Source of the DNA: an uncultured Clostridia bacterium | GTDB taxonomy: Bacteria > Bacillota > Clostridia > Christensenellales > UBA1242 | Direction: 5' to 3' | DNA length: 64,000 bases | Assembly: GCA_905235475.1 (NCBI GenBank) | Contig: CAJOLU010000005.1 | Coordinates: 72,892 to 136,891 of the forward strand | In this document: positions 14,816 through 52,300 of the stretch, one piece after another | Numbering within the stretch: the stretch's first letter is position 1 | Layout of the letters: each line of letters begins with the position of its first letter | Notes under the pieces: model-generated | What the model was told of the DNA's origin: nothing | Databases searched by the model: none | What the model saw: only the letters and a program-made list of their open reading frames with translations | Position numbers and translations under genes: made by a program

Positions 14816-14821
14816 TAATTT

Positions 14822-18332: not shown

Positions 18333-18348
18333 TGTTAGGCTTTTATTC
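18322..18348. terminator. Bidirectional hairpin between convergent genes
   Basis: Stem AAAGCCTA / TAGGCTTT with an A-run on the left and a T-run on the right. It overlaps both stop codons. Confidence 0.55.
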
Positions 18349-18600: not shown

Positions 18601-18603
18601 ATA

Positions 18604-19047: not shown

Positions 19048-19123
19048 TTTTTCTCCCTAATTTAATTTTTCACTTATATTATAATAATTTTTTTACTTTT
19101 TGGCAACAACTTTTATTATTCTA

Positions 19124-19152
19124 TTGACTATTTTTTAAAATTTTTATATAAT
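19124..19152 (+). promoter_or_regulatory. Sigma-A promoter for tRNA-Trp (TTGACT-17-TATAAT)
   Basis: -35 at 19124-19129 and -10 at 19147-19152, about 10 nt upstream of the tRNA 5' end. Confidence 0.65.
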
Positions 19153-19162
19153 AGAAGAATAT

Positions 19163-19236
19163 AGGGGAGTGGCTTAACGGTAGAGTAGTGGTCTCCAAAA
19201 CCATTGGTCAGAGTTCGATTCTCTGCTCCCCTGCCA
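19163..19236 (+). tRNA. tRNA-Trp (anticodon CCA)
   Basis: Cloverleaf readable by eye: acceptor AGGGGAG/CTCCCCT, anticodon loop CTCCAAA, T arm AGAGTTCGATTCTCT, and an encoded CCA. Confidence 0.9.
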
Positions 19237-19242
19237 AGCAAT

Positions 19243-19265
19243 AAACCCATAAATAAAGGGTTTTC
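19243..19265 (+). terminator. Terminator after tRNA-Trp
   Basis: Stem AAACCC / GGGTTT followed by a T-run. Confidence 0.5.
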
Positions 19266-19303
19266 GAGGTATTTTTGATTTTTGCAAAAATGCCTCTTTT
19301 TTT
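19266..19303 (+). terminator. Second, stronger terminator after tRNA-Trp
   Basis: 11-bp stem GAGGTATTTTT / AAAAATGCCTC (one mismatch) followed by TTTTTTT. Confidence 0.6.
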
Positions 19304-19344
19304 ATATTTTAACCCCAAAAGTGTTGTCAGAGGTGTTGTCAACA

Positions 19345-19375
19345 TTAAAAAAGAACATATTTATCAATATGTTCT
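19345..19375 (-). terminator. Terminator of the ABC transporter operon
   Basis: Stem AGAACATAT / ATATGTTCT, with the T-run on the minus strand. Confidence 0.6.
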
Positions 19376-19395
19376 TTTCAATATGTTCTTTAATT

Positions 19396-21315
19396 TTATT
19401 TAATTTCTCTTTTTCTAAAAATTAAGTAAGATAACATTGTTATTAGAACAATAAGAATTAAGTTTGATATAAACGAATACCAGAAACCAACTCCATGGAA
19501 AACTGATGACGAGAAAATGGTTGATATCAAAGAGCTTTGTCCTGTTGCAACAAATGAACCACCAAAGAATTTGAATAAATCTAAATTGCTAAATGGAATA
19601 AATCCATAAATATATGATGTTGCGAAAATTGTTCCCATAATGCTTATTAAGAAGTATAGAACGATTGAAATACTAACAGCACCAACATTACTTCTAAATA
19701 TAGCGGATATGGCAAGAGAAATAACAACATAGAATAATGTTTTAAACAGCAAGCATAACAAGTAGATTAGAAGTAGGAGAGTTGGCGAAATTGCAAACGC
19801 TTGAGTTCCATTAAACACAGCAAGCACTGGGGTGAAACTAACTCCATATAATGCCCATCCAATTAAGAATAAAACAATTGTTGAGAATACGAAGAAAATG
19901 GCTGCAAAAATCAATGTTGCTAAAAGTTTGCTTGTTAAAATGCTTCTTCTAGAGTATGGTCTTATTAACAAAAGTTTAAGTGTTCCATTTGATTGTTCTC
20001 CAGCCAGCATTCCTGCTGCCAGAACAATGGTAAAAATTATTATAACAATGCTAACAATTTCTAACCCAAAATAAACAAAGTCAAAAGCATTTCCAGCGTT
20101 TGTTGATGCAATAACACCATTAAAAACAGTGGCATAATCTGTTTCAACAGTGTGGGTATTTAACATATAAACTTGTTTTGCAATAACTTCATCAACGGCA
20201 TATAAATATAATAATGAATCACCACTGCTGGATATACTCATTATGTTATATCCATAATATGCACTTGCTTCTTTATCTCCCATTTTTAAAACAGCATCAT
20301 AGTTTGTTGTGTTTGTGATTAGCCTGCTAACATTCAGCGAATAAATATAATATTTATAACATAAATCCTTTAATTGGTTTAAGTTCTTCTCATCATTTGT
20401 TGCAGCCAAAGTGCTTATTTCTGTTTTTAAAGAAGATAAATATGTTTTTGCTTCCTCAATGTTTGCTTGTCTTTCTTCATAAATTTGATCTGAAACAGAT
20501 TTTATTTTAATTGAATCCACAAAACTGCATAGTTCGCTATATAAATCTAGTTCTCTAAATAATTTTCTAATTGATGCGTGGTTTTCTATTTTTGTAATGT
20601 CATATTCAGATGGCCTATCATCACTTATCACTTTGTTATATATTTCTATATAAATTTCATTAAAACGAGTAATTTTTTCTGTTGGAACAATAATGTTTGG
20701 GTTATCAATTAGTGTATTTTTTAATTTTTGTATATCATTAATGCCTGTGATATAGGTGTGAATTGCAACTAAGTTATTTGATTCATGAACTGGGGTAGGA
20801 TTAATGAATTCACTTGTTTGTGAAGTTCTTATTGGACCAACAACATTTGCTAGTGCATCAATTGATGCAATAACACTGCTATCTTTAAAGTTTTGTTCAT
20901 TCATATATGTTTGATATGCAGATAAAAAGTCATCAGGCTCGCTAATGCTTTGGCTTCTGTGTTCGCCAATTAAATAATTAATATATTCAAGTATATCTCT
21001 TTCACCAGGTTCAGTTTTATCTGTTCTTGCTTTTGCTTTTTCTAATTCATTTTCCGCTTGAATAATAAGTTGATCAGATGCTATAGCACCAAATTTATTT
21101 GATGCAATTGGATCGTTAAATGTTTTGTTAACTTTGGCTAGAGTGTCTTGGCTAGAGTAAACACTATGTAATGCGGAATAATCATCTTTTGTTTTTGGGT
21201 CGAATTGAAAATAAGAAAATATTATTGCCAAAACAATTACTGCAGTTATAATGTAAAGAATTGGTCGCATTAATATTTTATTTAATTCACCTTTTAATAA
21301 TTTATAAAACCCCAT
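19396..21315 (-). CDS. ABC-2-type transporter permease with a large extracytoplasmic domain
   Basis: N-terminal TM segment, a ~400-aa soluble region, then a 5-6 TM C-terminal bundle. It lies immediately downstream of the ATPase gene. Confidence 0.7.
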   Translation of the reverse strand: MGFYKLLKGELNKILMRPILYIITAVIVLAIIFSYFQFDPKTKDDYSALHSVYSSQDTLAKVNKTFNDPIASNKFGAIASDQLIIQAENELEKAKARTDKTEPGERDILEYINYLIGEHRSQSISEPDDFLSAYQTYMNEQNFKDSSVIASIDALANVVGPIRTSQTSEFINPTPVHESNNLVAIHTYITGINDIQKLKNTLIDNPNIIVPTEKITRFNEIYIEIYNKVISDDRPSEYDITKIENHASIRKLFRELDLYSELCSFVDSIKIKSVSDQIYEERQANIEEAKTYLSSLKTEISTLAATNDEKNLNQLKDLCYKYYIYSLNVSRLITNTTNYDAVLKMGDKEASAYYGYNIMSISSSGDSLLYLYAVDEVIAKQVYMLNTHTVETDYATVFNGVIASTNAGNAFDFVYFGLEIVSIVIIIFTIVLAAGMLAGEQSNGTLKLLLIRPYSRRSILTSKLLATLIFAAIFFVFSTIVLFLIGWALYGVSFTPVLAVFNGTQAFAISPTLLLLIYLLCLLFKTLFYVVISLAISAIFRSNVGAVSISIVLYFLISIMGTIFATSYIYGFIPFSNLDLFKFFGGSFVATGQSSLISTIFSSSVFHGVGFWYSFISNLILIVLITMLSYLIFRKREIK

Positions 21316-21319
21316 ATTT

Positions 21320-22258
21320 TTACTTCCTATTATTTTTTAAAATATCCAAATATAAATCTTCTAGCGATTTTGATTCAACCCTTCCACCAAACACCGCAAT
21401 ATTCTTGCTTTGAAGTTCTTTAACAATCTTTTGATATAATTCTTTATTGTATGGAATCAAGATGCAATTTCCCGCAATTTCTGGGAAAAGGTTGAATTTT
21501 TCGTTAACCACTTTGCACGCATAGTTAGGGTAGTTAACGCTAATTGCAATTTGCTTATCAATTGATGAGTTTTCGTTTTGGTCGTTTTTGGATCTAAGTT
21601 CCAAAATTTTACCACTGTCAACAATTGCAAAGGAGTCACACAAAAGTTCCATTTCAGTTAGAATGTGGCTACTAACCATAATTGCCATTTTTTCTCTTGC
21701 TGCCAATATTTTTAGAGTTCTACGAAGTTCAATAACACCATTTGCGTCCAAACCGTTTGTTGGTTCGTCTAAAACGAGCAATTTTGGCTTATTCAATAGT
21801 GCTTGTGCAAGAGCAATTCTTTGTCTCATACCATATGAGTAAGTTCTAAATTTATCGTGAATTCTATTAGTCATTCCAACAGTTTCCACAATTTTATCAA
21901 TTTCTAAATGGTCGACATTGCCATTGAGGCTGGCAAAATATACTAAGTTTTGATATCCAGTCATATATGAATATGCTTGGCAGTTCTCAATCATCGCCCC
22001 AAGATTTACAATAGCTTTTTTAAATTGATGTTGAACTGAATTGCCACAAATAAAAACTTCACCAGAAGTTGGTGGAGTCATTCCACAAATAATTCTAATA
22101 AGTGTTGTTTTTCCAGCACCATTTGGTCCTAGAAATCCAAAAATTTCACCAGCATAAATATCAAAATTGATGTCATTTAAGACAGTTCGATTTTTATATT
22201 TTTTTGTTATACCCTTAACTTCTAACACTTTATTGTTAGAATTTTCAACTGAATTCAT
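21320..22258 (-). CDS. ABC transporter ATP-binding protein
   Basis: Walker A GPNGAGKTT, signature YSYGMRQR, Walker B LLVLDEPTNGLD and an H-loop. Confidence 0.92.
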   Translation of the reverse strand: MNSVENSNNKVLEVKGITKKYKNRTVLNDINFDIYAGEIFGFLGPNGAGKTTLIRIICGMTPPTSGEVFICGNSVQHQFKKAIVNLGAMIENCQAYSYMTGYQNLVYFASLNGNVDHLEIDKIVETVGMTNRIHDKFRTYSYGMRQRIALAQALLNKPKLLVLDEPTNGLDANGVIELRRTLKILAAREKMAIMVSSHILTEMELLCDSFAIVDSGKILELRSKNDQNENSSIDKQIAISVNYPNYACKVVNEKFNLFPEIAGNCILIPYNKELYQKIVKELQSKNIAVFGGRVESKSLEDLYLDILKNNRK

Positions 22259-22411
22259 AGTTACTCCTATTTTAAACTATAAATTATTATAGTATATTTT
22301 TCAGATAAAGTAAATAATTTTTTCAAAAATGTGAAAATATTACGCAAAAAAATCAAAAAAATTTTAATTTTTATTAAAAAAATAGCAAATTTAACTCAAA
22401 AATGGTCAAAT

Positions 22412-22436
22412 AAAAAAAGAGAAGACAATCTCTTTT
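22412..22436 (-). terminator. Terminator after the PadR-like gene
   Basis: Stem AAAGAGA / TCTCTTT flanked by A- and T-runs. Confidence 0.55.
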
Positions 22437-22442
22437 ATTTTT

Positions 22443-23711
22443 TTATATTTGATATTTTTCTTGTTTTGATATAATTAAGTTTAGAATCACACGCAGAATA
22501 ATACCAAAAATTAACATTGTTGGAATAAACCAACGATTCAAATAATGAACTTTTGTCAGTGATGCCAAATTTTCCATTCCAGCAAGTAAATTAACTGCAA
22601 CAATAAACACAAATAGTAAAACAAAAGCAAAAATTCTTATTGCAAACTTTTTTCCCCATTTGATTTTCTTATTAATTTTTTTATTTGGATGTTTGAGTAA
22701 TGAGAAGATGTCAATCAACACCAAAATAATGGAAATAAGTAGAGCAGAACCCATAATTATATAATCAACAAGGGTCATCCAACCTTTTAAATCATATAAC
22801 AAAAACATAGTTAAATATATTGAAAGGTTAATAAAGAAAATACATAAACCACTCACAAAGTTAATTTGATTAATATATAAATATTTGTGTTCATTTCTTT
22901 TTATATCCAAGTTAGTTACATTTTTTTTCTTATTAATGTTATCAATAAGTTGTATTTCAACATCTTCAGCCGACTGATTGTTTTTTTGTTTGGAAAAATT
23001 TTCATTATATTTTTTTGCAATGCTTTCCAATAAATCCATATTTGTTGGCGTTGGAGTGGTGTTTTCTTGAGGAGGGCTTTTTTTATTGTTTTTATTGTCA
23101 TTTTTAAACATTTCATTTAGTTCTTTAATATAGGCAGATGAACTATAACCAGATTGTGATTCCATTTTTTCTTTTGGCACAGAAGTAGGTTGGTCTTTTT
23201 TTGCAATTGTTTGAGGCTGTTTAGCAATTTTCTCATCAATATTAACTTCGTCTTCATTTTCATCTGTGAGGAAATCTCCCAAAATTGATTTATAATTTAC
23301 AGGTGAATCTAGAGTTTCAGGTTCATCATCATCAAATACTTCATCATTAAAATCGGTGTTAATGCCATTTGGTCTAATGTTTGGAAATATATTATCATTA
23401 TGTGATGGTTTCTGGTTGGGCTCATTAATATATTCGTCAGCGGCATCTTGAAAACTAATTTTATTATTAAGTGCTTCAACTCCAAGTGGAGTTGCTTTAT
23501 AGTAATGTCTTTTTCCACCCAAAACGCTTCCTTCCCAATAGGAGGTAACATAGCCTTTGGCTTCTAATCTGCGAAGGGCACTATATAGGCTTGGTTGTTT
23601 TAACACAACTCGGTTATTAGTTTTTCTTTTTATTTCTTCAATGATTTCTAAACCATATTTACTTTCATTTTTTATGGAATTTAAAATGATGGTGTTTAAG
23701 TCAGTTGCCAT
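22443..23711 (-). CDS. PadR-family winged-helix regulator fused to a C-terminal multi-TM domain
   Basis: N-terminal YGLEIIEEI...LKQPSLYSALRRLEAKGYVTSYWE...GGKRHYYKATPLG is the PadR signature. An N/D/P-rich linker follows, then ~4 hydrophobic segments. Confidence 0.75.
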   Translation of the reverse strand: MATDLNTIILNSIKNESKYGLEIIEEIKRKTNNRVVLKQPSLYSALRRLEAKGYVTSYWEGSVLGGKRHYYKATPLGVEALNNKISFQDAADEYINEPNQKPSHNDNIFPNIRPNGINTDFNDEVFDDDEPETLDSPVNYKSILGDFLTDENEDEVNIDEKIAKQPQTIAKKDQPTSVPKEKMESQSGYSSSAYIKELNEMFKNDNKNNKKSPPQENTTPTPTNMDLLESIAKKYNENFSKQKNNQSAEDVEIQLIDNINKKKNVTNLDIKRNEHKYLYINQINFVSGLCIFFINLSIYLTMFLLYDLKGWMTLVDYIIMGSALLISIILVLIDIFSLLKHPNKKINKKIKWGKKFAIRIFAFVLLFVFIVAVNLLAGMENLASLTKVHYLNRWFIPTMLIFGIILRVILNLIISKQEKYQI

Positions 23712-23906
23712 AAAATCCCTCCAATTTTGCCAACGTCATAGAGAGTATAATAAAAATTTTTTATTAAGTCAACAAAAATAGGGTATTATGCAAAACATAA
23801 TACATGCATAGCACACAAAAACCGCGTAAATACGCAATTTTTTGTCAAAAAATCATTTGAAAATTTATTCGTAAAATGCTATAATACAAATGAAAAGGGG
23901 GCAAAA

Positions 23907-24584
23907 ATGATTACAATAGACCAGCTCATACGAACAAAAAGACGAACAATTTCCATTCAAATTTCCTCAAACGGAGAGCTCATTGTTCGTGCTCCAACAA
24001 GGTGTTCATATGCTCAAATTGAAAAAGTGGTTCAAGATAGAATAGGTTGGATTAGAGTTCATCAAGAGAGAATTTTGAAAAATAACGCCATTAATTCAAA
24101 TATAATTTCATATAGGGAAGTGATGTTTTTAGGTGTTACAAAACCAATCATTTTTGATTCAAAAACAAAGAAGATAGAGTATCATGAAACCCATTTTACA
24201 ATTAATGAAAAATATGCTGAAAACATTCCAAAAATAAAAAAGTTGGTGATTGGTTTTATGGTGGAACAAGCACAGGAAATTCTTATAAATAGAGTAAACT
24301 ATTTTGCCAATTTAATGCAATTATTGCCACAAAGTTTGTCTATATGTAATAGTAAAAGAGTGTGGGGCAGTTGTAGCAAAGAGGCAGATATAAAACTTAA
24401 TTGGAGGCTTATTATGTTGCCACCAGATTTAATTGACTATGTTGTTGTTCACGAACTATCACATATAATTGAATTTAACCATTCTAAATTGTTTTGGAAA
24501 CTGGTGGGAAGTGTGTTGCCAAATTATAAAGAAAGAAGAGCGTTATTGAAAAAGGGTGACTTTTTACTTAATTTATATAGATAA
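23907..24584 (+). CDS. YgjP-like metal-dependent hydrolase (DUF45/M48-like)
   Basis: HEXXH motif in VVVHELSHIIEFNHSKLFW, with family-typical size. Confidence 0.75.
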   Translation: MITIDQLIRTKRRTISIQISSNGELIVRAPTRCSYAQIEKVVQDRIGWIRVHQERILKNNAINSNIISYREVMFLGVTKPIIFDSKTKKIEYHETHFTINEKYAENIPKIKKLVIGFMVEQAQEILINRVNYFANLMQLLPQSLSICNSKRVWGSCSKEADIKLNWRLIMLPPDLIDYVVVHELSHIIEFNHSKLFWKLVGSVLPNYKERRALLKKGDFLLNLYR

Positions 24585-24734
24585 ATTTTGTGTTGGGTTA
24601 GAAAAATAGGGAAGAGAATAAGGGATAAATTAACGTGAAAATCATTAATTAACATTAGAAAAATATATTTTCCAACCTTATTAGAAATTTTAGAATATCA
24701 ATTCCAATCCAATATTTATAAAAAAATTGAAGAG

Positions 24735-24759
24735 AATAGGGTAAAAAAACCCTATTTTT
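24735..24759 (+). terminator. Rho-independent terminator
   Basis: Stem AATAGGG / CCCTATT followed by TTTTT. Confidence 0.6.
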
Positions 24760-25162
24760 ATATTGATTTAATTATGCGTAAAAGACAAGTTTTACGAATA
24801 GTTATTGTTTATAACACAAATAAAACACCAAATTTGATAACTTTATTTCATTTATTATATATTTACAAATTTTACATATAATCATTATATTTTGCATAAC
24901 ACTTAAAATTTTATATGAACACTTATTCATAAAAATTTAACTTTTTGTTCTGAATTAACTTTATAAATGAATCAAGTCTTTGATAATAAAATTATTATAA
25001 TGCAAAATATTTTTTATTGTAAATTGATTGTTTATTTTTTCCTTTGTGATAATTTTTTAATTTAGGGATTATTTTTACTTAATTTATAAAGTAACCCAAA
25101 ATTACTCTAAATTATCAAAAACCACCCTCCTCTAATCTTAATTGAGACGCAAAACTTAAAAT

Positions 25163-25190
25163 AGCATGAACATTCCCTCATGCTTTTTTT
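25163..25190 (+). terminator. Orphan rho-independent terminator inside the ORF-free gap
   Basis: Stem AGCATGA / TCATGCT followed by TTTTTTT, with no ORF upstream. Confidence 0.5.
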
Positions 25191-25578
25191 GTGCTTTTGT
25201 GACATAAAATAAAAAAATCTAAATTGTCATAAAATTTTGGTATGTTATTTTATTTCTAAATAACATTAACTTTTATGTTATTTTATTAATACCCATTAAC
25301 TTTATAGAAACAAAAACATCCCCAATATATAGAAAAATTTTTAATACAGAAGTATTTTGTTACTAGTTATGTTATATGGAATAATGTTATAAATGTTTAC
25401 TTTATATTTCAGCATTTATTTGATTTTTTGAGTTCAAAATGAAACTTATATTGTGTGAAAAAGCTGGATTGAATGTGAAAAAAATGGAGTAAAATGAACT
25501 ATGCGTAAAATTTTTGTTAATTTTATTAGACAAAATTGTTATAAAATGTTACAATCATTATGAAAGTGAGGTGTTAAT

Positions 25579-26622
25579 ATGTCTGAAAAATATTATGTTG
25601 ATAGAAAAGATAAGGTAACAGTTAAATTGCGTGAATTACAAATGGAACTCCCCTATTTTTGTTCTGAATTTTTTCTGGGAATTGAGAACCAAACAACTCC
25701 ATTAACAAGGCTTAATTATGCCTATGACTTGCGTATTTTTTTCGATTTCTTAACCACAGAAATAGATAAATTTGCAGACAAAAAGATTAAACAATTTAGT
25801 TTAATGGACCTAAATAGCGTTGAACCAATGGATATTGAACTATTTATGAATTACCTTAATTACTACAAGTTTAAAGGCAAAGTTTACCGCAATAATGAAC
25901 AAGCAAAAGCAAGAAAATTGTGCACAATTAGGTCATTTTTTAAATATTTCTTTAAAAAAGAAAAACTTTCTTCAAATGTTACAGTTAAAGTTGATTTGCC
26001 AAAAATTCATCAAAAAAACATTATAAGGCTTGAAAACAATGAGATGACTGACCTTTTAGACCAAGTTGAAACTGGTTATGCCCTAACTCCAACTCAACAA
26101 TCTTTCCACAGACACACAAGTCTTCGTGATTACGCAATGATTACTTTATTTTTGGGCACTGGTATTCGTATTAGTGAACTAATTGGACTTGATATTGATG
26201 ACATCGATTTTTCAACAAACGCCTTTAAAGTAACTCGAAAAGGTGGAAACCAATCAATCTTATATTTTTCAGATGAGGTTGCTGATGTTTTAAAAGAATA
26301 TGTTGAATATCGAAAGAACTTAAAAGGTGTTCCAGAAACTGAAAAAGCCCTATTCCTTTCACTTCAAAAGAAGAGAATTTGCCCAAGAGCTGTTCAAAAT
26401 TTGGTTAAAAAATATAGCCAGGTTGCCACTCCACTTAAACATATCACACCACACAAACTTCGCAGCACATATGGCACAAATTTATATAAAGAAACCAATG
26501 ATATTTATGTTGTTGCTGATGTTTTGGGACATAAAGACATTAACACAACAAGAAAACACTATGCCGCAATGAGTGAAGACATTAAAAAAGCTGCAGCAGA
26601 CAAAGTTAAACTTAGAAAATAA
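25579..26622 (+). CDS. Tyrosine recombinase, XerS/XerC-like
   Basis: SD GTGAGGTG. Catalytic pattern TGIRISEL (R), TPHKLRSTYGTNLY (H-x-x-R), LGHKDINTTRKHY (H...Y). The long N-terminal core-binding domain and VTRKGGNQ resemble streptococcal XerS. Confidence 0.8.
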   Translation: MSEKYYVDRKDKVTVKLRELQMELPYFCSEFFLGIENQTTPLTRLNYAYDLRIFFDFLTTEIDKFADKKIKQFSLMDLNSVEPMDIELFMNYLNYYKFKGKVYRNNEQAKARKLCTIRSFFKYFFKKEKLSSNVTVKVDLPKIHQKNIIRLENNEMTDLLDQVETGYALTPTQQSFHRHTSLRDYAMITLFLGTGIRISELIGLDIDDIDFSTNAFKVTRKGGNQSILYFSDEVADVLKEYVEYRKNLKGVPETEKALFLSLQKKRICPRAVQNLVKKYSQVATPLKHITPHKLRSTYGTNLYKETNDIYVVADVLGHKDINTTRKHYAAMSEDIKKAAADKVKLRK

Positions 26623-26632
26623 TAAAAATATT

Positions 26633-26672
26633 CGAACAAATGTTTGACTTTTGGTTTTTTTTGTGTTATACT
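26633..26672 (+). promoter_or_regulatory. lexA promoter (TTGACT-17-TGtTATACT) overlapped by a LexA/Cheo box
   Basis: Box CGAACAAATGTTTG at 26633-26646 overlaps the -35 at 26644-26649. The extended -10 is at 26664-26672. Confidence 0.7.
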
Positions 26673-26705
26673 CTACTTGAATTAAAAATTTGTGAGGTAA
26701 CATAA

Positions 26706-27338
26706 ATGAAAAAATCAATGGAAATCAAATTAGAAAAATTGTATGATTTTTTGGTTAGCTATAAAAATCAAAATGGTTTCTGCCCTTCCGTTAGAGAAAT
26801 GTGTGAAGAACTAAAAATTAACTCAACTTCAACAATTACATACTATCTAAATCGCCTTGAAATGCAAGGAAAAATAAGGCGTGGTGCATCAAAAAACAGA
26901 GCTATTGAAATAATTGAAGATAAAAAGCAAAGCCAAAATGAACAAATGCTTGAAATCATTAGTTCATATAAGCCTATTCCAATTCTTGGACAAATCACTG
27001 CTGGAGCACCAATTTTGGCTGTGGAAAACTGTGAAGAAGTTTTTTATATGCCAACTGGCTTATTCCGTGGAGATGACCTTTTTATGCTCACTGTTCATGG
27101 GGAAAGTATGATTGATGCTGGAATTATGGATGGCGACAAAGTTGTTATTCGCAGACAAGACACTGCTAACAATGGTGAAATTGTTGCTGCCCTAATTGAT
27201 GACTCTGCAACAATTAAAAGATTTTATAAGGAAAATGGCAGATTTAGACTACAACCAGAAAATTCCAGTATGGAACCAATGTTCTTTGATGAAGTTTCAA
27301 TTATTGGAAAAGTTGTTGGATTAATTAGAAATCTATAA
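26706..27338 (+). CDS. lexA: SOS repressor LexA
   Basis: N-terminal wHTH, an AG cleavage site (ITAGAP), and the S24 peptidase motif VHGESM plus IKRF lysine. Confidence 0.93.
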   Translation: MKKSMEIKLEKLYDFLVSYKNQNGFCPSVREMCEELKINSTSTITYYLNRLEMQGKIRRGASKNRAIEIIEDKKQSQNEQMLEIISSYKPIPILGQITAGAPILAVENCEEVFYMPTGLFRGDDLFMLTVHGESMIDAGIMDGDKVVIRRQDTANNGEIVAALIDDSATIKRFYKENGRFRLQPENSSMEPMFFDEVSIIGKVVGLIRNL

Positions 27339-27340
27339 TA

Positions 27341-27375
27341 AAAAATAACCTAGAAAAAATCTAGGTTATTTTTTA
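27341..27375. terminator. Bidirectional terminator between lexA and miaA
   Basis: 10-bp stem AATAACCTAG / CTAGGTTATT flanked by A- and T-runs. Confidence 0.75.
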
Positions 27376-28113
27376 TTGTTCAATTTTATAATCACGATAA
27401 ATTTCAACAATCTCATCAATTGCTGAATCTAAATTTTCATCAACATCAATCCATTTGCCATTCATATGTTTAAACCAAGTTATTTGCCTTTTAGCATAGT
27501 TTCTTGTGCCTTGTTTAATCTTTTCAATAGCTTCATTTAATGTGATATTATTATCTAAATATTCAAGAAGCTCTTTATAGCCAATGGCTTGAACGCATTG
27601 GTCGTTCTTATCTAGCCCATGTTCTTTTAGGTGTTTAACTTCATCTATCAAGCCATTTTCAAGCATAACATCAACACGTTTATTGATTTTATCATAAAGT
27701 TTTTGTCTATCTTGATTTAAAATATATAGATTATAATCATAAACACTTTCTTTATTTTCTTTCTCTTTCTTAAACGAGTAAGCATACAAAAGTGATTCCA
27801 TATATAGTCCCGTTCCCCCAACAATAACTGGAAGATTGCCCCGGCTGGTTATCTCATCAATATATTTTCTTGACAAATTAACAAAATCAAAAGCATTAAA
27901 CTTTTCTTTAAAATTTACCTCATCTATTAAGTGATGAACACATATATTTTTTTCACTTTGAGATGGTTTTGAAGTTCCAATGTTTAACTCACGATACACT
28001 TGCACTGAATCAGCTGAAATAATTTCCATTTTGATTTTATGTGCTAGTTTTAATGCAAAAGCACTCTTCCCAACTGCTGTTGGACCACCAATCAATAATA
28101 ACTTCTGTTTCAT
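27373..28113 (-). CDS. miaA: tRNA dimethylallyltransferase (short form)
   Basis: P-loop GGPTAVGKS, SADSVQVYRELNIGTSKP, GGTGLY and RNYAKRQITWF. At 246 aa it is roughly 70 aa shorter than typical MiaA. Confidence 0.85.
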   Translation of the reverse strand: MKQKLLLIGGPTAVGKSAFALKLAHKIKMEIISADSVQVYRELNIGTSKPSQSEKNICVHHLIDEVNFKEKFNAFDFVNLSRKYIDEITSRGNLPVIVGGTGLYMESLLYAYSFKKEKENKESVYDYNLYILNQDRQKLYDKINKRVDVMLENGLIDEVKHLKEHGLDKNDQCVQAIGYKELLEYLDNNITLNEAIEKIKQGTRNYAKRQITWFKHMNGKWIDVDENLDSAIDEIVEIYRDYKIEQ

Positions 28114-41904: not shown

Positions 41905-42161
41905 AACTCCTTTTAAAACAAAAACTTCGTCCCCAAAAAATTAGGACGAAGTTTTCTCCGTGTTACCACCTAAATTCTTTCTTTAAAGAAAGCACTCATT
42001 TTGGCTATGTCGTTGCCAACGCTCTTTTTACTACTATTTCGAAAGAGTGCTAGAAAGTGAATTCACAAAAACTATCAATGGGCATTCTCACCAATATCCC
42101 TCTCTGTTAATGCTTAAGTTCTTGCTACTAGTCTTTCATCATCGCGTTTATTTAGAATGAT
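41905..42161 (-). promoter_or_regulatory. T-box riboswitch leader (Phe, specifier UUC) with terminator/antiterminator
   Basis: Minus strand shows GCGATGATGAAAG...AGTAG stem I start, the AGAGAG motif, a GAAUUCAC specifier region, the T-box GGTGGTAACACGG, and the terminator AAACTTCGTCC...GGACGAAGTTT plus a T-run. Confidence 0.85.
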
Positions 42162-44847: not shown

Positions 44848-46287
44848 ATGAAAAAGAAAAAAACAATTTTAACACTTGCCCTATTAAGCACAGTTGCTTT
44901 GGGCGGAAGCACACTCGTTTCAACACAAAATGTTGAAGCACAAAACCAATTAATGAGTTCACTTAATAGGCTGGAAAGCTACACAAACATGAACTACGAC
45001 TTCAACAGTTTAGAAAACACGCTTCTAAACAATGACTACTTTTTGTTCTACAACAATGGAAATTATCAAGTTTTCAACAGGCAATCTAGTGATTATGGAA
45101 ACTACTTCAGTTCACAGCAAAACACACAAAACCAGCAACAAATGAACAACAACTCTTCGCAAAATGGAAATAATGGTGGGTATTATGTTTTGCGTAATAC
45201 CACAAATTCAAACAATCAAAATTCTCAAAATATGGGAACAGCAAATTCCATAAACTCTGCCCCAACACAAAATTCAAATATGCAACAAACAACCAACTCA
45301 AATAGCAGAAATGGTGGTATGTCAAGCACATCAAACACACAAGGTGTGAGTGGTTCAAGCACAAATATGGCTCAAACATCTGCTGTCAATAATTCAACAA
45401 ACACAACTAACGGAACAAATAACACAAGTTCAAACAGTGGAAGTTACAACACAACTAACGGAACGAATAACACAAGTTCAAACAGTGGAAGTTACAACAC
45501 AACTAATAGGACAAACACAACAAACAATGGTTACAACACAATCAATAGCATAAATGGTTCAAGCAATAACACAACAAGTGGCACAAACTCAAATCAAAAC
45601 ACTATGCAAATGCCAACTCAAAACAGCGTAAATAGAAGCACAAGCTCAACCTTTGACTATAACTCCTATTCCCCATCAATTCAAAGTTTAAATCAAAATC
45701 TAACACAAAATATTGAAACATTAAAACAAAATATTGGTAACAAAACAAACCAAAACACAAGAAATGTTAGATTTTATGCAAGCACACTAAACAATTTGGC
45801 AGATAAACTTGATATGAATGAAAAAGAACTTATGAATGATTTAAATAAAAGTTATCTTGCTGGAACCAATGAAAAATACACTGATTTACAAAAAGCAATT
45901 AATATTAACTTAAAAGCAACACTTAAATCTAGAATTGTTATTTTGGAATGTGCAAATGAGGCTGTTATGAACCTTAACTCATTATACTCTACTCAAAATC
46001 AAGCAACCACACAACAAACAACCAATCAATCAACAATGAACCGTGGAACAACAAATCAGATTACAAATAATGGAGTTCAAAACAATCAAACAAACACCTC
46101 TCAATCAACAATGCAACAAGCCACAAACCAAACTCCAACAACACAACAAACAAATGGTCAATCACCACATATACAAACTGGAAAAGCACAAACAAGCACA
46201 AACGCATATTTTGGTGAAACAGTTGCAAAACCTCAAATAACAAAAGAATCAGCTCAAAAACTAGATGATTTAAAAGATGCTCAATAG
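44848..46287 (+). CDS. Secreted Asn/Gln/Thr/Ser-rich low-complexity protein
   Basis: SD AAAGGAG and a signal peptide MKKKKTILTLALLSTVALGG. About 300 aa are dominated by N, Q, T and S, and there is a coiled central segment. Confidence 0.7.
   Translation: MKKKKTILTLALLSTVALGGSTLVSTQNVEAQNQLMSSLNRLESYTNMNYDFNSLENTLLNNDYFLFYNNGNYQVFNRQSSDYGNYFSSQQNTQNQQQMNNNSSQNGNNGGYYVLRNTTNSNNQNSQNMGTANSINSAPTQNSNMQQTTNSNSRNGGMSSTSNTQGVSGSSTNMAQTSAVNNSTNTTNGTNNTSSNSGSYNTTNGTNNTSSNSGSYNTTNRTNTTNNGYNTINSINGSSNNTTSGTNSNQNTMQMPTQNSVNRSTSSTFDYNSYSPSIQSLNQNLTQNIETLKQNIGNKTNQNTRNVRFYASTLNNLADKLDMNEKELMNDLNKSYLAGTNEKYTDLQKAININLKATLKSRIVILECANEAVMNLNSLYSTQNQATTQQTTNQSTMNRGTTNQITNNGVQNNQTNTSQSTMQQATNQTPTTQQTNGQSPHIQTGKAQTSTNAYFGETVAKPQITKESAQKLDDLKDAQ
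45403..45498 (+). repeat. Near-perfect 48-bp tandem duplication inside the N/Q-rich gene
   Basis: ACAACTAACGGAAC(A/G)AATAACACAAGTTCAAACAGTGGAAGTTACAAC occurs twice (TTNGTNNTSSNSGSYN), with a third degenerate copy following. Confidence 0.9.
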
Positions 46288-46294: not shown

Positions 46295-46330
46295 ATAAAA
46301 AAAAGATGGCTAAATTTGCCATCTTTTTGT
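46295..46330. terminator. Bidirectional terminator between convergent genes
   Basis: Stem AAGATGGC / GCCATCTT flanked by an A-run and a T-run. Confidence 0.65.
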
Positions 46331-47482
46331 TATGTTTTGAATAATTTTTAAATAACTCATTGCATCAACATCATTATTAACCAAGACATTGATTTCTTCA
46401 ATCAAAACACCATTATCAAGCACTTTGATTGTTCCAATCTTGTCACCCACTTTAAGTGGAGCTTTAATGCTTTCTGGAAGGCATAATTCAGCACTTATTG
46501 AACTTGTTTCTCCCTTCTTTACCACAACAGAATAATCTTTTTCAGCAAACACTTGAAGATCGTTTTCTTGTGCTTTTTCTAGCCTTATGTTTTCGCCTAG
46601 GTTCAAAGATTTATCAACAAGTTTCTTGCTCTCAAATGTGTTAAATCCATATTCTAACAATCTTCTACTTTCTGCAAACCTTGTTTTTCCACTGTCCGCA
46701 CCCAAAACAACACTAATTAAACGCATATTGCCGTTTTGTGCTGTTGCACACAAGCAATATCCAGCCTCGGCTGTTGAGCCAGTTTTTCCGCCATCGCATA
46801 AGTCATAAGTTTTTAATAATTTATTTGTGTTCGACATTGTTGTGATTCTTCCCTTTGGATGAGCAAAATCTTCCATCCATATTGAAGAAAGATTTAAATA
46901 TAAAGGATGTTTTAACACCTCTCTCATAACCATTGCCACATCTTGTGCAGAACTATATTGCATTGGCGCTGGAAGTCCAGTTGCATTTGCATAGTTTGTG
47001 TTTGTAAGCCCCAACTCTTTTGCTCTCTTGTTCATAAGGTTACAAAAGTCTGCCTCACTCCCTGAAATACTTTCCGCCAAAAGAACACTTGCGTCATTTG
47101 CCGAACATATGATTGCTGCCTTTAGTAAGTCTATCACTTTATATTCGCCACCTGCTTCCAAAAACACTTGTGAGCCTCCCATGCCAGCTGCGGTTTCACT
47201 TGCAGTGATCACTTGCTCCTCATCTAAAAGTTTGTTATCAATACTCTCCAAAGTTAAAAGAATTGTCATAAGTTTTGTTACGCTCGCAATTGGCATTCCT
47301 TCAGTTGAGTTATTTTCAGAAAGTATTTGACCAGAGTCATAATCCATTAACAAACTTGCCCTAACTTTTCCTTCTTGCGTTACAGCAAGGCATTTTGAAG
47401 TTGGCATAAACCCACCAAACAAAAACAATAAAGTCATAACACCAGCAAAAATTAAAACTGATAATTTTGAAATTCTTAACAT
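46310..47482 (-). CDS. D-alanyl-D-alanine carboxypeptidase (PBP5/DacB/DacF-like)
   Basis: Signal/TM N-terminus, SxxK (ASVTKLMT), SxN (CSAND) and KTG (GKTGST) motifs, and a C-terminal PBP5_C-like domain. Confidence 0.88.
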   Translation of the reverse strand: MLRISKLSVLIFAGVMTLLFLFGGFMPTSKCLAVTQEGKVRASLLMDYDSGQILSENNSTEGMPIASVTKLMTILLTLESIDNKLLDEEQVITASETAAGMGGSQVFLEAGGEYKVIDLLKAAIICSANDASVLLAESISGSEADFCNLMNKRAKELGLTNTNYANATGLPAPMQYSSAQDVAMVMREVLKHPLYLNLSSIWMEDFAHPKGRITTMSNTNKLLKTYDLCDGGKTGSTAEAGYCLCATAQNGNMRLISVVLGADSGKTRFAESRRLLEYGFNTFESKKLVDKSLNLGENIRLEKAQENDLQVFAEKDYSVVVKKGETSSISAELCLPESIKAPLKVGDKIGTIKVLDNGVLIEEINVLVNNDVDAMSYLKIIQNITKRWQI

Positions 47483-47534: not shown

Positions 47535-48179
47535 TTAAGCAACACCAATAAACAAAGCAGAGGTTATATGAGGCATAATAACACATTCCAAAATATATAA
47601 AGCACTAGCAAAAACACCCACCAAAAATAAAAGAGATTTATTTTCCTTTATAAAATGACCACTCAAAACTGAATATCCCGTGTTCTTTTGATTAAAGCAC
47701 CAAAACAAACAAACCGCCCCCAACATTAACAACAAAAATAACGCAAGCAAGTGAACTGGAAAGTATAACAAAATAACATTCACAACTCCACCAAACTTAT
47801 ATAATGAAATTAAAATAGCACAATTAATTCCAATTAAAAAGGAACGATATAAAAACACAAAAAAGGAAATCCAACACAAATAGCCCTTGGCGTTAACACA
47901 TATGATAAGTAAACACAGTCCCAAAAAGCCAAATAGCCTTGAAAAGAAAACAGATAAACCACTTGTTTTCTTGTTTATATAGAGTGCCAACACATTGTCT
48001 GGCAAATCAGATAAAGAAAAGTTATCTGCCCTATTAAACCCAACAACAAAGCCAACAATTAAGCCCGTCATAATAATTGCTATTAAAATTAGATATTCCC
48101 ATTTATATTGTGAAAAATGATCACCAATAGAATATTTGATAATTCCTTTTCGAGATAATGCACCATTCTTTTTAGTCAT
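47535..48179 (-). CDS. spoIIM: SpoIIM-like integral membrane protein
   Basis: 214 aa with ~5 TM segments. Size and topology match stage II sporulation protein M, and it sits beside the spo0A-like gene. Confidence 0.45.
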   Translation of the reverse strand: MTKKNGALSRKGIIKYSIGDHFSQYKWEYLILIAIIMTGLIVGFVVGFNRADNFSLSDLPDNVLALYINKKTSGLSVFFSRLFGFLGLCLLIICVNAKGYLCWISFFVFLYRSFLIGINCAILISLYKFGGVVNVILLYFPVHLLALFLLLMLGAVCLFWCFNQKNTGYSVLSGHFIKENKSLLFLVGVFASALYILECVIMPHITSALFIGVA

Positions 48180-48229: not shown

Positions 48230-48925
48230 TTATATATATAAATTTAGATATTCACATATTAATTCTATAAAACAATTTGTGGTTGGAGGGGTTTTAAAAA
48301 ACTCCTCATGTATGCCAGTTCTTCGACTAAGTTCTTTTGTGTCTGCCTTTTTTAATGAACCAATAATCATAAGGCGAACAAGCCTTTCAACATTCTTGGG
48401 TGTTGTGTTATGCTTTTCCGCAACTTTTTCATAAATTTTAGACATTGGACATGTTTTATATTGATTTAGAAAAACGCTATACTTAATGCAATCTCGCAAT
48501 AAAATATATCCCCTAAACTTTGGTCTCATACCAAGAGTAATTAAATGTTGGTCAAGGTTAAAAATCTTATAGGAGTCAATACTTCTATTTAAAATGGAAT
48601 TAATTAAAACTTCCAATTCTTGATAGAATGCTCTTTTATAAACCAAATCTCCAGATTTATCAGCATCAAAAACAATAAAACTAACACCATTAAATATTGT
48701 TGATTGCAAATACTTATCTTCAATTATCTCATGAATATACTTATTGGACGATTTAATAATAACCAATTTTGCTTTTGAAATAATTATAGTGGAAATCAAA
48801 TTCCCCATATCAGTTGTGTTTTGAACAAAAAAATTATTTTTTCTTAATAGATTACTTATATCATAATCCATAAAACAATTATCTTCGTGATAATATATTG
48901 CGTTCAATATACATAACTCCTTCAT
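48230..48925 (-). CDS. spo0A: Spo0A-like sporulation regulator with an atypical receiver domain
   Basis: The C-terminal Spo0A_C signature is clear (GMRPKFRGYILLRDCI...KIYEKVAEKHNTTPKNVERLVRLMI...PTTNCFIELI). It lies immediately downstream of spoIVB, as spo0A does in Bacillus and Clostridium. The N-terminal ~115 aa are receiver-sized but degenerate. Confidence 0.7.
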   Translation of the reverse strand: MKELCILNAIYYHEDNCFMDYDISNLLRKNNFFVQNTTDMGNLISTIIISKAKLVIIKSSNKYIHEIIEDKYLQSTIFNGVSFIVFDADKSGDLVYKRAFYQELEVLINSILNRSIDSYKIFNLDQHLITLGMRPKFRGYILLRDCIKYSVFLNQYKTCPMSKIYEKVAEKHNTTPKNVERLVRLMIIGSLKKADTKELSRRTGIHEEFFKTPPTTNCFIELICEYLNLYI

Positions 48926-48946
48926 CTTTAACTTGATTTTACCACG

Positions 48947-49000
48947 ATTATTTTACAAAAGTCAACAATATTTTACAAAATTTTTCAATATTTTACAAAA
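48947..49000 (-). repeat. Three phased direct repeats upstream of the spo0A-like gene
   Basis: The 11-mer ATTTTACAAAA (+ strand) ends at 48960, 48980 and 49000, an exact 20-bp period. Copies 2 and 3 share CAATATTTTACAAAA, while copy 1 reads GATTATTTTACAAAA. In gene orientation the repeat is TTTTGTAAAATATTG. Confidence 0.85.
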
Positions 49001-49010: not shown

Positions 49011-50015
49011 TTATAACATCCAGTCAATATAAATGCCGAAACCTTTGGTTGAATCATTCGTAAAAACGTGAGTTACCGCACCAACAAGTTTTCCATTTTG
49101 AACAATAGGGCTACCACTCATACCTTGAACAATTCCACCAGTTTGAGCAATTAATTCTTTATCAGTCACCTTAAAGACTAAGCTTTTATCATTTGAAACA
49201 TTTTGATAGTTGGTCTTTATAATTTGAATGTCATATGCTTTCACTTCCCCACCCACAACAGAAGAATAGATTTGAGCATTTCCAGGCTTTATTGTTTTTC
49301 TTCCACCAATATCAACATATTTCGTTTTATCTTTGCAAAATGCACCATCAATTGTGCCAAAAACGCCATAATCAGTGTTTTTCACAACTTTTCCAATTGG
49401 TTTATTTTTTAAAATAACACCTTTTAGTTCTCCAGGCCTTCCTTTATATCCCTTCACAACAGACACAATGTCGCAAGAATAGATTTTCCCAGATTTCACA
49501 GATAAATTTTTTGTTTGCCCACCAACAGTTATTGGGTGGCCAAGGGAACCAAAGTAGCCAGTGCTAGGATTTATGTATGTTAAAGTTCCAACCCCACTTA
49601 TATCATCTTTCACCCAAACGCCCAAAATATATTTTTGAGATAACAAGTCAAACGCTGGTGTTAGATTAATCGAAAACTCCTCATTATTCCTATAATATGT
49701 AATATTAACAAGTCTTCCCCTATTTTTTCCGTTTAACAAATTTGAAATTTGCTGTGAAGAATAGATTTCTTCATCACAAATAGATTTTATAATATCACCA
49801 ACCTGAAAAACTTTGTTCACTTCCTCATTAACAGAAAGAACTGGAACACCGCAAGGCGTGTATTCAAAGCCAACAGTTTCTCCGCCCAAAATAACCTGCG
49901 ATACCCTATCTGTTTGCATTGCAAAAGAAAAGTTTGAAACAGCAACATCTGTTGAACACAAAAAAGCCACAAAACATAATAGAAAAAGCATAACATTTCT
50001 TATCACTTTAAACAT
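49011..50015 (-). CDS. spoIVB: SpoIVB peptidase (S55)
   Basis: N-terminal TM segment, PDZ-like region, and catalytic-serine motif GIVQGMSGSPIVQNGKLVGAVTH. Confidence 0.92.
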   Translation of the reverse strand: MFKVIRNVMLFLLCFVAFLCSTDVAVSNFSFAMQTDRVSQVILGGETVGFEYTPCGVPVLSVNEEVNKVFQVGDIIKSICDEEIYSSQQISNLLNGKNRGRLVNITYYRNNEEFSINLTPAFDLLSQKYILGVWVKDDISGVGTLTYINPSTGYFGSLGHPITVGGQTKNLSVKSGKIYSCDIVSVVKGYKGRPGELKGVILKNKPIGKVVKNTDYGVFGTIDGAFCKDKTKYVDIGGRKTIKPGNAQIYSSVVGGEVKAYDIQIIKTNYQNVSNDKSLVFKVTDKELIAQTGGIVQGMSGSPIVQNGKLVGAVTHVFTNDSTKGFGIYIDWML

Positions 50016-50083: not shown

Positions 50084-51745
50084 TTAAGCTTTTAGTTGTT
50101 GCGCTTTTTGTTTAAGTTCTTTAGCATATGAGAAGGCAAATCCTTCACTAATTCCACCCGCAAGCCTTGCAATTTCAGCCAATTTTTGCTCATCATTCAA
50201 TTCAACAACCCTTGTTGAAGTTCTTTCTCCGCTTTCCTTAAACACCTTAAAGTGTTGGTCTGCCATTGCACCAATGCTGGCAAGGTGTGAAACAACAATA
50301 ACTTGTGAATGTTTTGCAATTTCACTTAGTTTTGTTCCAACAAAGAAGCCAACCTCTCCACCAATTCCGTTGTCTATCTCATCAAATATCATTGTGCTTG
50401 CTCCATTTTTATTTCCCATAACAGCCTTAAACGCAAGCATAAACCTAGACATTTCACCACCAGAAATAACACGAGAAAGTGGTTTTAGAGGCTCGCCCTT
50501 ATTAGCGGAAAACATAAATCTAACAATATCATTTCCATTTTTGGTGATATTTTCTGATTTGGTTATTTCCACCAAAAGTTTTGCATTTTGCATTCCAAGA
50601 TATGAAAGTTCATTTTTCATTTTATCTTGCAAAATTTGAGCATTTTTGCACCTTTGCTGTGTGATATCATCACAAAGGTTGTGTATAGTTTCCAAAAGTT
50701 TTTGTTTCTCTTCAGATAGTTTTTGACACTCATAATCACTGTTTTGCAAAAATTCAAGTTTCTTGCTAGCCTCACTTAAATACTCCATTGCACTTGCAAC
50801 TGTTCCACCATATTTTCTTTTAACATTTTTAATAACCGAAAGTCTTGCTTCAACTTCTTCAAACTCAATTTCACTAAAATTATAAGAATCCATAACAGAA
50901 CACAAACTTTCTTTAATGTCTTCAAGTTCAATTTGCACATTGTTAATTCTTTGTTGTTGCTCCGCAATTTGTGCATCGTCGCCACAAGCATTATTTAAAC
51001 TTTTACTAGCAAAACTTAGTGAAGAGAACACAGAAAATTCATCACTTCCATCAAAAGAAGATAAACAAGAATTAACGGCATCACAAACCTTTTGCACATT
51101 GAAAAACTTCTTTTGTTTTTCTAAAAGTTCTTCTTCCTCACCGTCTTTTAAATCAGCTTCTTCAAGTTCATTTATTTCAAACTCCAAAATATCAATTTCG
51201 CGTTGTCTTTTCCCCTCATCACCCCCAAGAGATTCAAGTTTTTTGTCAATCTCCGCAAGTTGTGCCAAAACGCCTGAAAGTTCTTCCAATTTTTCTGGCT
51301 TGTGTATTGCATCAACAAAATCTATATGGCTGTTTTCATTCAAAAGACATTGATGTTCGTGTTGACCATAAATATCAACCATTGTGCTAGTAAGCCTTTT
51401 GAGCATTGCGTTTGTGATGATTGAACCATTAACCCTTATTTCATTCTTACCATCAATTTTGAGTTTTCTTGTGATTAACAACTCATCAGTGCACTCAACA
51501 CCAATTTCTTCACAAACTTGTTTGGTTTTATCATTAACCAAAAACATTCCCTCAACTTGAGCAAAATTAGTTCCACTTCGAATGAAAGATTTATCAACCT
51601 TTTCTCCAATTAAAAAACTAATAGCATTAATTAAGATAGACTTTCCTGAACCAGTTTCTCCAGTGAATACAATCAAGTTATCTTTTAAATCCAAAGTTAA
51701 ATCTTCGATTAAAGCAAAATTTTGAACTCTAATTTTTGTTAACAT
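50084..51745 (-). CDS. recN: DNA repair protein RecN
   Basis: Walker A GETGSGKS, long coiled coil, signature SGGEMSR and Walker B MIFDEID. Start set at the ATG preceded by GAGGTGA (MLTKIRVQNF). Confidence 0.95.
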   Translation of the reverse strand: MLTKIRVQNFALIEDLTLDLKDNLIVFTGETGSGKSILINAISFLIGEKVDKSFIRSGTNFAQVEGMFLVNDKTKQVCEEIGVECTDELLITRKLKIDGKNEIRVNGSIITNAMLKRLTSTMVDIYGQHEHQCLLNENSHIDFVDAIHKPEKLEELSGVLAQLAEIDKKLESLGGDEGKRQREIDILEFEINELEEADLKDGEEEELLEKQKKFFNVQKVCDAVNSCLSSFDGSDEFSVFSSLSFASKSLNNACGDDAQIAEQQQRINNVQIELEDIKESLCSVMDSYNFSEIEFEEVEARLSVIKNVKRKYGGTVASAMEYLSEASKKLEFLQNSDYECQKLSEEKQKLLETIHNLCDDITQQRCKNAQILQDKMKNELSYLGMQNAKLLVEITKSENITKNGNDIVRFMFSANKGEPLKPLSRVISGGEMSRFMLAFKAVMGNKNGASTMIFDEIDNGIGGEVGFFVGTKLSEIAKHSQVIVVSHLASIGAMADQHFKVFKESGERTSTRVVELNDEQKLAEIARLAGGISEGFAFSYAKELKQKAQQLKA

Positions 51746-51844: not shown

Positions 51845-52300
51845 TTAACTTTCTAATATTTCAGATAACCTTGCACTAATCTTTGAAACAACACTTTGGT
51901 CATCAATAATCACCATAACAGTGTCTTCCCCATACACACAGCCCATAACATGTTCAATTCCCAGCCTATCAACAAAGTTAGAAACAGCACCCGCTGTGCC
52001 CTTGATTGTTTTAATCACAACAAGGTTGTTAATATATTTAACCCACATCACAGCTTCTCTAAAAATATTTGCAGACCTATTGTTTCCAACGCTGTCACCA
52101 TTACCCACAAAAGCATAACGATATTTTTTTGTCTCCCCAACAATTTTAATAAGCCCTAACTCTTTTATATCTCTTGAAACTGTTGCCTGTGTTACATCAA
52201 ATCCTGCTGAACATAATGATGACACCAGTTCTTCTTGTGTTTCTATTTCATTGTTTGTGATGATTTCAATTATCTTTGATTGTCTTAATGACCTTGCCAT
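51845..52300 (-). CDS. argR: Arginine repressor ArgR/AhrC
   Basis: N-terminal wHTH (QEELVSSLCSAGFDVTQATVSRDIKEL) and C-terminal oligomerisation domain (GTIAGDDT-like GCVYGEDT). Start at the ATG after GAGGGAAG. Confidence 0.9.
   Translation of the reverse strand: MARSLRQSKIIEIITNNEIETQEELVSSLCSAGFDVTQATVSRDIKELGLIKIVGETKKYRYAFVGNGDSVGNNRSANIFREAVMWVKYINNLVVIKTIKGTAGAVSNFVDRLGIEHVMGCVYGEDTVMVIIDDQSVVSKISARLSEILES

Follow-up and report, generated by a model that had tools for sequence, protein, structure and literature searches.

Endospore formation is regarded as being triggered universally by phosphorylated Spo0A (Spo0A~P), and studies of how sporulation begins in Clostridia centre on its kinases and phosphatases. 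The gene is classically found in a recN-spoIVB-spo0A arrangement. Removing or truncating the receiver domain, as in the sad67 work of 1993, reportedly relieves the inhibition of Spo0A. The protein contacts G and C positions of its target sequence TGTCGAA, the 0A box, and the isolated effector domain binds DNA without phosphorylation; B. subtilis Spo0A deprived of its receiver recognizes its targets in the unphosphorylated state (PMC3485338). According to a survey of sporulation genes, Spo0A is universal in spore-formers and has paralogues in 11 of 118 Spo0A-positive genomes (about 9%); surveys of this kind take the absence of spo0A as proof of the inability to sporulate.

Response regulators can also work without a phosphorylatable aspartate. 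A receiver is classified as a pseudo-receiver when one or more of the five active-site residues, especially the Asp, are missing (PMC12632262; definition in PMC4395418). HP1043, ChxR, GlnR and others are phosphorylation-independent dimers controlled by abundance, partners or ligands, and basic residues occupy the Asp position in 4% of the aspartate-less receivers. As to proteins with a Spo0A-type output, 7 of the 391 Response_reg~Spo0A_C proteins of Pfam 26 were found to be aspartate-less; they were counted and not described (Maule et al., 2015, S6 Table). A 2025 review on pseudo-receivers makes no mention of Spo0A, and in the literature we found no Spo0A orthologue described as having a pseudo-receiver or as acting independently of phosphorylation.

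The gene analyzed here is located in a 64-kb stretch of DNA, hereafter the window, and its main features are listed in Table 1. We consider it probable that this gene is a spo0A orthologue whose receiver has degenerated to a pseudo-receiver, and that it encodes a phosphorylation-independent regulator in a small clade of uncultured, low-GC Clostridia. An open reading frame of 231 aa at 48230..48925 on the minus strand, on which the preliminary description was based, is indeed present in the window. However, its translation would more likely start at the TTG at 48907 than at the ATG at 48925, because the sequence GAAGGAG precedes the TTG by 9 nt and both the homologues and the gene callers agree on this start. 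The longer form is therefore probably 6 codons too long, and the ribosome-binding site overlaps its ATG. The upstream sequence reads taaagATGaaGGAGttatgtataTTGaac. According to the public gene callers and in every homologue, the product consists of 224-225 aa and begins with MNAI or MNVV. Residues are numbered here on the 225-aa form (48230..48907), except where the 231-aa reading frame is mentioned.

Table 1. Position of the spo0A-like gene, of its domains and control elements, and of the adjacent genes in the window.
Feature	Position	Strand	Remarks
D-Ala-D-Ala carboxypeptidase gene (Peptidase_S11 + PBP5_C), dacB/dacF-like	46310..47482	-	from Pfam
Gene of a conserved 214-aa multi-pass membrane protein	47535..48179	-	50 nt downstream of the spo0A-like gene, no terminator between
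spo0A-like gene	48230..48907	-	TTG start, 225 codons + stop
Spo0A_C DNA-binding (effector) domain, residues 118-225	48233..48556	-	from Pfam, PDB profile search and Foldseek
Recognition-helix codons E174-R175-L-V-R178	48374..48388	-	aligned with B. subtilis E213-R214-A-I-R217
N-terminal domain, residues 1-108	48584..48907	-	receiver-like alpha/beta, four strands, no REC sequence signature
Lys52 codon AAA	48752..48754	-	C-terminal end of predicted beta3, position of Spo0A Asp56
Ribosome-binding site GAAGGAG	48917..48923	-	9 nt before TTG, overlapping the ATG at 48925
Sigma-A-type promoter TTGACT-18-TAAAAT with TG extension	48936..48965	-	architecture kept in relatives
Three exact TTTTGTAAAATA copies, 20-bp spacing	48949..49000	-	overlap the promoter and extend upstream
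spoIVB (PDZ + Peptidase_S55, 251 bits)	49011..50015	-	directly upstream of the spo0A-like gene
recN (SMC_N)	50084..51745	-	gene callers' start gives 553 aa
argR	51845..52300	-	upstream of recN

Across the homologues, the gene begins with TTG, GTG or ATG, and five of the seven lineages have TTG or GTG. In detail, TTG is used in the window (48905-48907) and in loci L010, L002 (at 205), L003 (at 3153), L004 and L012, GTG is used in L009 (at 8581), and ATG is confined to the L005/L006 subclade. Weak start codons are thus kept for a putative master regulator.

The C-terminal half of the protein is clearly a divergent Spo0A effector domain, as had been claimed from the bare sequence. Spo0A_C (PF08769) is the sole Pfam domain found, covering residues 127-227 of the 231-aa reading frame (63.1 bits, E = 2.7e-17, cutoff 25), and six other representatives of the family score between 46 and 64 bits. 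A search of the PDB sequences with the family profile matched only the Spo0A C-domains 1LQ1 and 1FC3. Likewise, a Foldseek search with the AlphaFold model recovered the effector fold with an E of 1.3e-4 and a TMt of 0.74 for 1FC3_A, and with a TMt of 0.72-0.77 for the chains of 1LQ1. Sequence identity to the effector domain of B. subtilis Spo0A is about 28%, and the helix-turn-helix core N-T-T-x-x-x-V-E-R-x-x-R is retained. Within this core, none of the 12 family sequences departs from E174, R175 and R178; their B. subtilis equivalents E213, R214 and R217 are said to contact the 0A box, as reported in 2002 with structure 1LQ1. The 0A box TGTCGAA itself occurs once in the window (3.7 expected by chance), inside dacB. 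Finally, the protein stays below the 200-bit cutoff of the NCBIfam equivalog model spore_0_A (TIGR02875): it scores 36.9 bits, and the alignment covers only the last 102 residues.

The family to which the protein belongs is small. It comprises seven 90%-identity clusters among 5.8 billion proteins and has two representatives among 1.84 billion 50%-identity clusters. It occurs in a single named genome, the MAG Clostridia bacterium Tb.RUG.40 (JAEETG01), and on two more metagenome contigs, all presumably of rumen or gut origin, as suggested by sample labels such as RUG (for the MAG) and SHIW14 and WILK20 (for scaffolds). The clade has no cultured member, and its ability to sporulate is putative. 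Identity to the window protein is 63-72% for P0002-P0004, 52% for P0007 and 33% for P0005 and P0006. Between L005 and L006, the closest pair of distinct lineages in which dS is unsaturated, dN/dS is 0.10 in the N-domain and 0.12 in the C-domain; between the window and its closer relatives, for which dS is saturated, the values are 0.16-0.23 and 0.10-0.13, respectively. Both domains are under purifying selection, and this, together with the conservation, indicates that the gene is not a pseudogene. The preliminary description had left a pseudogene open as an alternative, which dN/dS values of about 0.1 and the conservation contradict, and had asked whether the variant is conserved in relatives, which is the case in all seven clusters, each with the same synteny of sporulation genes.

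Selection notwithstanding, the Spo0A-like protein is the fastest-evolving product of the locus. When the window is compared with L006, this protein is 33% identical (26% in the N-domain and 41% in the C-domain) versus 59-88% for the neighbours, for instance ArgR (88%), SpoVAD (86%), PheS (85%), RecN (66%), DacB (63%) and SpoIVB (62%); among the relatives, SpoVAD and YunB share 86-90% and 82-89% identity, respectively. The protein is therefore sharply divergent between the subclades and constrained within them. This fast evolution could reflect a weakened or changed role.

As for the genomic context, the earlier observation that the gene follows spoIVB holds: spoIVB is directly upstream, preceded by recN and argR, so that the gene occupies the position of spo0A in a recN-spoIVB-spo0A cluster. 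Farther upstream, beyond argR, are xseAB, nusB, asp23 and spoIIIAA-AH, and the order spoIIIA...nusB-xseAB-argR-recN-spoIVB-spo0A is identical around every relative recovered. Downstream lie the genes of a 214-aa membrane protein and of a DacB-like protein, spoVAC/AD/AEb, yunB and, behind a T-box, pheST. The sporulation genes of this neighbourhood (spoIIIAA-AH, spoIVB, spoVAC/AD/AEb and yunB) are intact. The first terminator-like hairpin past spo0A is found at 46300-46328, after the dacB/dacF-like gene. This identical synteny in all relatives supports orthology with spo0A.

An unlikely alternative is that the window holds an accessory or displaced paralogue that has drifted to another regulatory job, sporulation being governed by a canonical spo0A with a phosphorylatable product at another site of the genome. 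Duplication of spo0A is documented, with two copies in 10 of the 118 Spo0A-positive genomes surveyed and three copies in one, and both the failure of the NCBI equivalog model and the rate at which the protein evolves would suit a paralogue. On the other hand, the ancestral position next to spoIVB is held in all seven lineages, purifying selection acts on both domains, and neither a second Spo0A nor a receiver match is found in 193 kb, consisting of the 64-kb window and 13 related loci (~129 kb).

The membrane protein gene adjoins the 3′ side of the spo0A-like gene in every relative, with a gap of 38-52 nt and no terminator before dacB, and its product is the second fastest-evolving of the locus (50-59% identity). 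It may be a functional partner of the Spo0A-like protein. Neither the protein nor its orthologues could be assigned to a family of Pfam or NCBIfam, not even at E<=10, and its identification as SpoIIM is accordingly unsupported. Between dacB and spoVAC, on the opposite strand (44848-46287, plus), a gene encodes a protein of 479 aa whose N-terminus resembles a signal peptide and which has long low-complexity repeats rich in Asn, Gln, Ser and Thr and no Pfam match; relatives have a similarly placed reading frame of 419-479 aa. The T-box leader upstream of pheS-pheT is at 41939-42151 on the minus strand (113.5 bits).

Other features of the window are more distant from the locus. A low-GC cluster (about 27%) at 7847-16530 on the plus strand contains a metallophosphoesterase, a radical SAM protein, an FkbM methyltransferase, two paralogues similar to TrpRS/TyrRS (tRNA-synt_1b), a PPDK_N/PEP-utiliser protein, a SAM hydroxide adenosyltransferase and reading frames without a family; it resembles a small island, either biosynthetic or acquired horizontally. 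GC skew is strongly positive in the first 18 kb (1-18 kb), where the genes are on the plus strand, and becomes negative from 28 to 64 kb, where they are on the minus strand, the two arms having convergent orientation. The region in between (~18000-28000), with a tRNA gene (19163-19233), a tyrosine recombinase gene (25579-26622) and a patch of 25% GC, would fit either a replication terminus or a strand-switch region. An unusually long PadR-family regulator (422 aa; 22443-23711, minus strand) adjoins an ABC-2 type transporter pair (19396-22258).

The promoter region of the spo0A-like gene carries phased TTTTGTAAAATA repeats, with no exact copies elsewhere in the 64-kb window. L002, L003, L009 and L012 retain one or two of the copies at the corresponding position, while L005 and L006 have a variant of the repeat and, further upstream, a box reading TGTCGAA in L006 and AGTCGAA in L005. 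The TGTCGAA of L006 is ~125 nt before the ATG of the spo0A-like gene. We considered the repeat as a CodY box (AATTTTCWGAAAATT), from which it differs by 3 mismatches; this idea was dropped because matches of this quality are no more frequent in the window than by chance (23 versus 37.5 expected) and the promoter repeats were not among the sites listed by the scan. Another, speculative reading is that the repeat is an altered 0A box (TGTAAAA instead of TGTCGAA). The residues E213, R214 and R217 reportedly read the C/G positions of the 0A box, again according to the 2002 paper on 1LQ1, and the idea stays speculative because the family keeps this E/R/R set.

The N-terminal domain bears no sequence signature of a receiver. 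Response_reg (PF00072) gave no Pfam match in the window protein at E<=1 nor in six further family members (P0002-P0007) at E<=10, and the same holds, at the same two thresholds, for the minor pseudo-receiver families PF06490, PF21155, PF21194, PF21695, PF21714 and PF22368; the domain is therefore not recognized computationally as either kind. B. subtilis Spo0A (100% identical to PDB 9PHZ and 1LQ1), included as a positive control in the run on P0002-P0007, scored 102.7 bits with Response_reg and 150 bits with Spo0A_C. A profile of residues 1-120 retrieved only the protein itself and P0005, and no REC domain, from 1.84 billion representative proteins, and a profile of the same kind retrieved nothing REC-like at E<=10 from the PDB sequences. 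When the domain was compared by hhalign with a small REC alignment (Spo0A x2, Spo0F and CheY), the probability was 0.2%, which is not significant, and the sole alignment obtained was used for its register only and not for its score. In this register, Lys52 is opposite Asp56 of Spo0A, E8-D9-N10 are opposite D10-D11-N12, F80/D81 are opposite Thr84/Ala85, and a [KR]-x-F motif faces the K-P-F of REC domains.

The structure was predicted with AlphaFold (AF2) on both the full protein (pLDDT 84.9) and the N-domain alone (pLDDT about 85, pTM 0.78). The predicted N-domain consists of b1 (2-7), a1 (15-23), b2 (27-31), a2 (34-44), b3 (46-52), a3 (56-69), b4 (76-80) and a long helix (88-106). Its topology is in register with REC through beta4, after which a single helix is found instead of alpha4-beta5-alpha5; overall, four strands and a long terminal helix are predicted versus the (beta-alpha)5 flavodoxin-like fold of receivers. 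Using the N-domain alone, Foldseek found no match at E<=1e-3. REC domains account for 23 of the best 50 matches, the best of them with TM values of 0.5-0.60 and E>0.04 (DivK 0.58-0.60, VanR 0.60, the CikA pseudo-receiver 0.50), and they are interspersed with other Rossmann-like folds such as AGO MID, PPAT and PHGDH. We infer receiver ancestry from position, topology and these matches at TM 0.5-0.6, none of which reaches a significant score.

These data also bear on the possibility that the N-domain is an unrelated alpha/beta domain which replaced the receiver by recombination. The lack of significant sequence or structural similarity to REC, the rank of non-REC Rossmann-like folds alongside the REC matches, and the presence of only four strands in the prediction are what such a replacement would leave. 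Nevertheless, we regard it as improbable: the size, the position and the beta-alpha register through beta4 fit decay in place, most members keep an E-D-N matching the D-D-N of Spo0A after beta1, a [KR]-x-F stands at the K-P-F site, and a search of 1.84e9 proteins revealed no donor family.

Whatever its origin, the domain lacks the acceptor site. The strand predicted at residues 46-52 (KLVIIK) ends with Lys52, which hhalign places opposite Asp56. Thus, the proposal that a beta3-like KLVIIK strand lacks the acceptor Asp is sustained, and so is the substitution of the Thr/Ser position of beta4, here F80/D81. Direct reading also confirms that no Asp is present between residues 40 and 69 of the 231-aa reading frame, a stretch flanked by D39 and D70. 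The check recommended at that time, a profile alignment that might reveal an acceptor Asp after all, gave the same answer, since no profile method (Pfam or hhalign) places an Asp there. The protein accordingly has no PF00072 receiver with an acceptor Asp at the end of beta3, and the absence of this residue agrees with the definition of pseudo-receivers. Across the family, five lineages have Lys at the position equivalent to Asp56, and the P0005/P0006 subclade has Pro with Lys or Arg after it. The acidic pair after beta1, tentatively recognized in the motif HEDN, is found only in part of the family: the pair reads E-D, E-Q (in P0007) or K-S (in P0005/P0006, as TKSN). The N-domain alignment contains no canonical Thr/Ser after beta4, whereas Asp81, just after this strand, and Thr70 are invariant. 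Since the acidic pair is variable and the Asp position is occupied by Lys or Pro, no phosphotransfer site is conserved.

The invariant residues raise the question of switching by covalent modification at a non-canonical site, i.e., at Asp81, at Asp14, or at a Ser/Thr such as Thr70 through a Hanks-type kinase. We give this little credence, even if Ser/Thr phosphorylation and acetylation are documented for atypical regulators such as GlnR and Asp81, just after beta4, might conceivably be an unconventional acceptor. Indeed, the metal-binding acidic pair is not conserved and becomes K-S in one subclade, the canonical Thr/Ser after beta4 is missing, and no kinase gene is present in the window or in the related loci. 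The least probable explanation, namely that sporulation is being lost in this lineage and that the gene is a relic, with the regulator drifting and the pathway out of use, could account for the unusually fast divergence between subclades in host-associated, low-GC organisms, but it conflicts with a dN/dS of about 0.1 within a subclade for both domains, with the intact and highly conserved sporulation genes around (SpoVAD and YunB among them) and with the invariant recognition-helix residues.

The explanation that we favour, a spo0A orthologue with a receiver degenerated to a pseudo-receiver, suggests the following mechanism. The C-terminal domain would still bind DNA through the Spo0A helix-turn-helix, while the pseudo-receiver could not be phosphorylated at the canonical site. 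Phosphorylation, the switch that normally starts spore formation, thus probably does not act on this protein, and neither a phosphorelay nor orphan kinases would control it. The remodelled N-domain, being retained under selection, would probably serve as a dimerization module or as a module binding a partner or a ligand. With the receiver degenerated and its canonical site lost, the activity would be set without His-Asp phosphotransfer, most likely by the amount of protein; alternatively, a non-phosphoryl input could act on conserved loops located where the strands end. Control at the level of expression is favoured because of two supporting hints, the sigma-A-type promoter with phased repeats and the weak TTG/GTG starts. 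A role of the protein in sporulation is likewise presumed. More tentatively, this may be the sole Spo0A of the organism, the decision to sporulate being fully uncoupled from His-Asp phosphotransfer, with activity dictated by how strongly the gene is expressed or by a novel partner or ligand acting on the remodelled pocket and with the phased TTTTGTAAAATA repeats as the entry point of a starvation or density signal.

If this is true, a checkpoint of sporulation would have been naturally rewired to another input in genomes that keep spoIIIA, spoIVB, spoVA and yunB, and Spo0A_C would join the output families that work with extreme pseudo-receivers. There would be a practical consequence as well. 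Because TIGR02875 misses the protein (36.9 bits instead of 200) and the absence of spo0A is taken as proof, pipelines based on such models could call these lineages Spo0A-negative and asporogenous.

The comparison with known systems places the family within a recognized class, that of aspartate-less receivers, for which we found no description of a spo0A orthologue with a receiver decayed beyond recognition. With canonical Spo0A (B. subtilis P06534; 1LQ1, 1FC3, 1QMP and 9PHZ), the protein shares the position after spoIVB, the two-domain layout, the effector fold (TM 0.74-0.77) and the NTT..VER..R core. It differs in being 225 aa long with a short linker, compared with 267 aa in B. subtilis, in the low identity of the effector domain (~28%), in the missing REC signature, with Lys or Pro in place of Asp56 and no conserved acidic pair, in having one helix where REC has alpha4-beta5-alpha5, and in failing the TIGR02875 model. 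The atypical regulators HP1043/HsrA of H. pylori, ChxR of C. trachomatis, RitR of S. pneumoniae, AmiR of P. aeruginosa and GlnR of actinomycetes similarly keep a receiver-type domain without a phosphorylatable Asp, and HP1043 and ChxR, which are phosphorylation-independent dimers, also lack part of the secondary structure of the pocket. However, most of these regulators are still recognized by PF00072 and have OmpR, NarL or ANTAR outputs, whereas the new family has a Spo0A_C output and escapes PF00072. The aspartate-less Response_reg~Spo0A_C sequences of Pfam 26 come closer, as they combine a Spo0A-type effector with a receiver devoid of Asp; nevertheless, they still match PF00072, and the survey does not classify them as orthologues or paralogues, while the new family is beyond detection by PF00072 and sits at the orthologous locus. 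Finally, the receiver-deletion alleles of B. subtilis (sad67) and the isolated DNA-binding domain would resemble it in having an effector that is active without phosphorylation, but these are laboratory constructs, whereas the family found here represents a conserved natural state with a shortened and remodelled N-domain.
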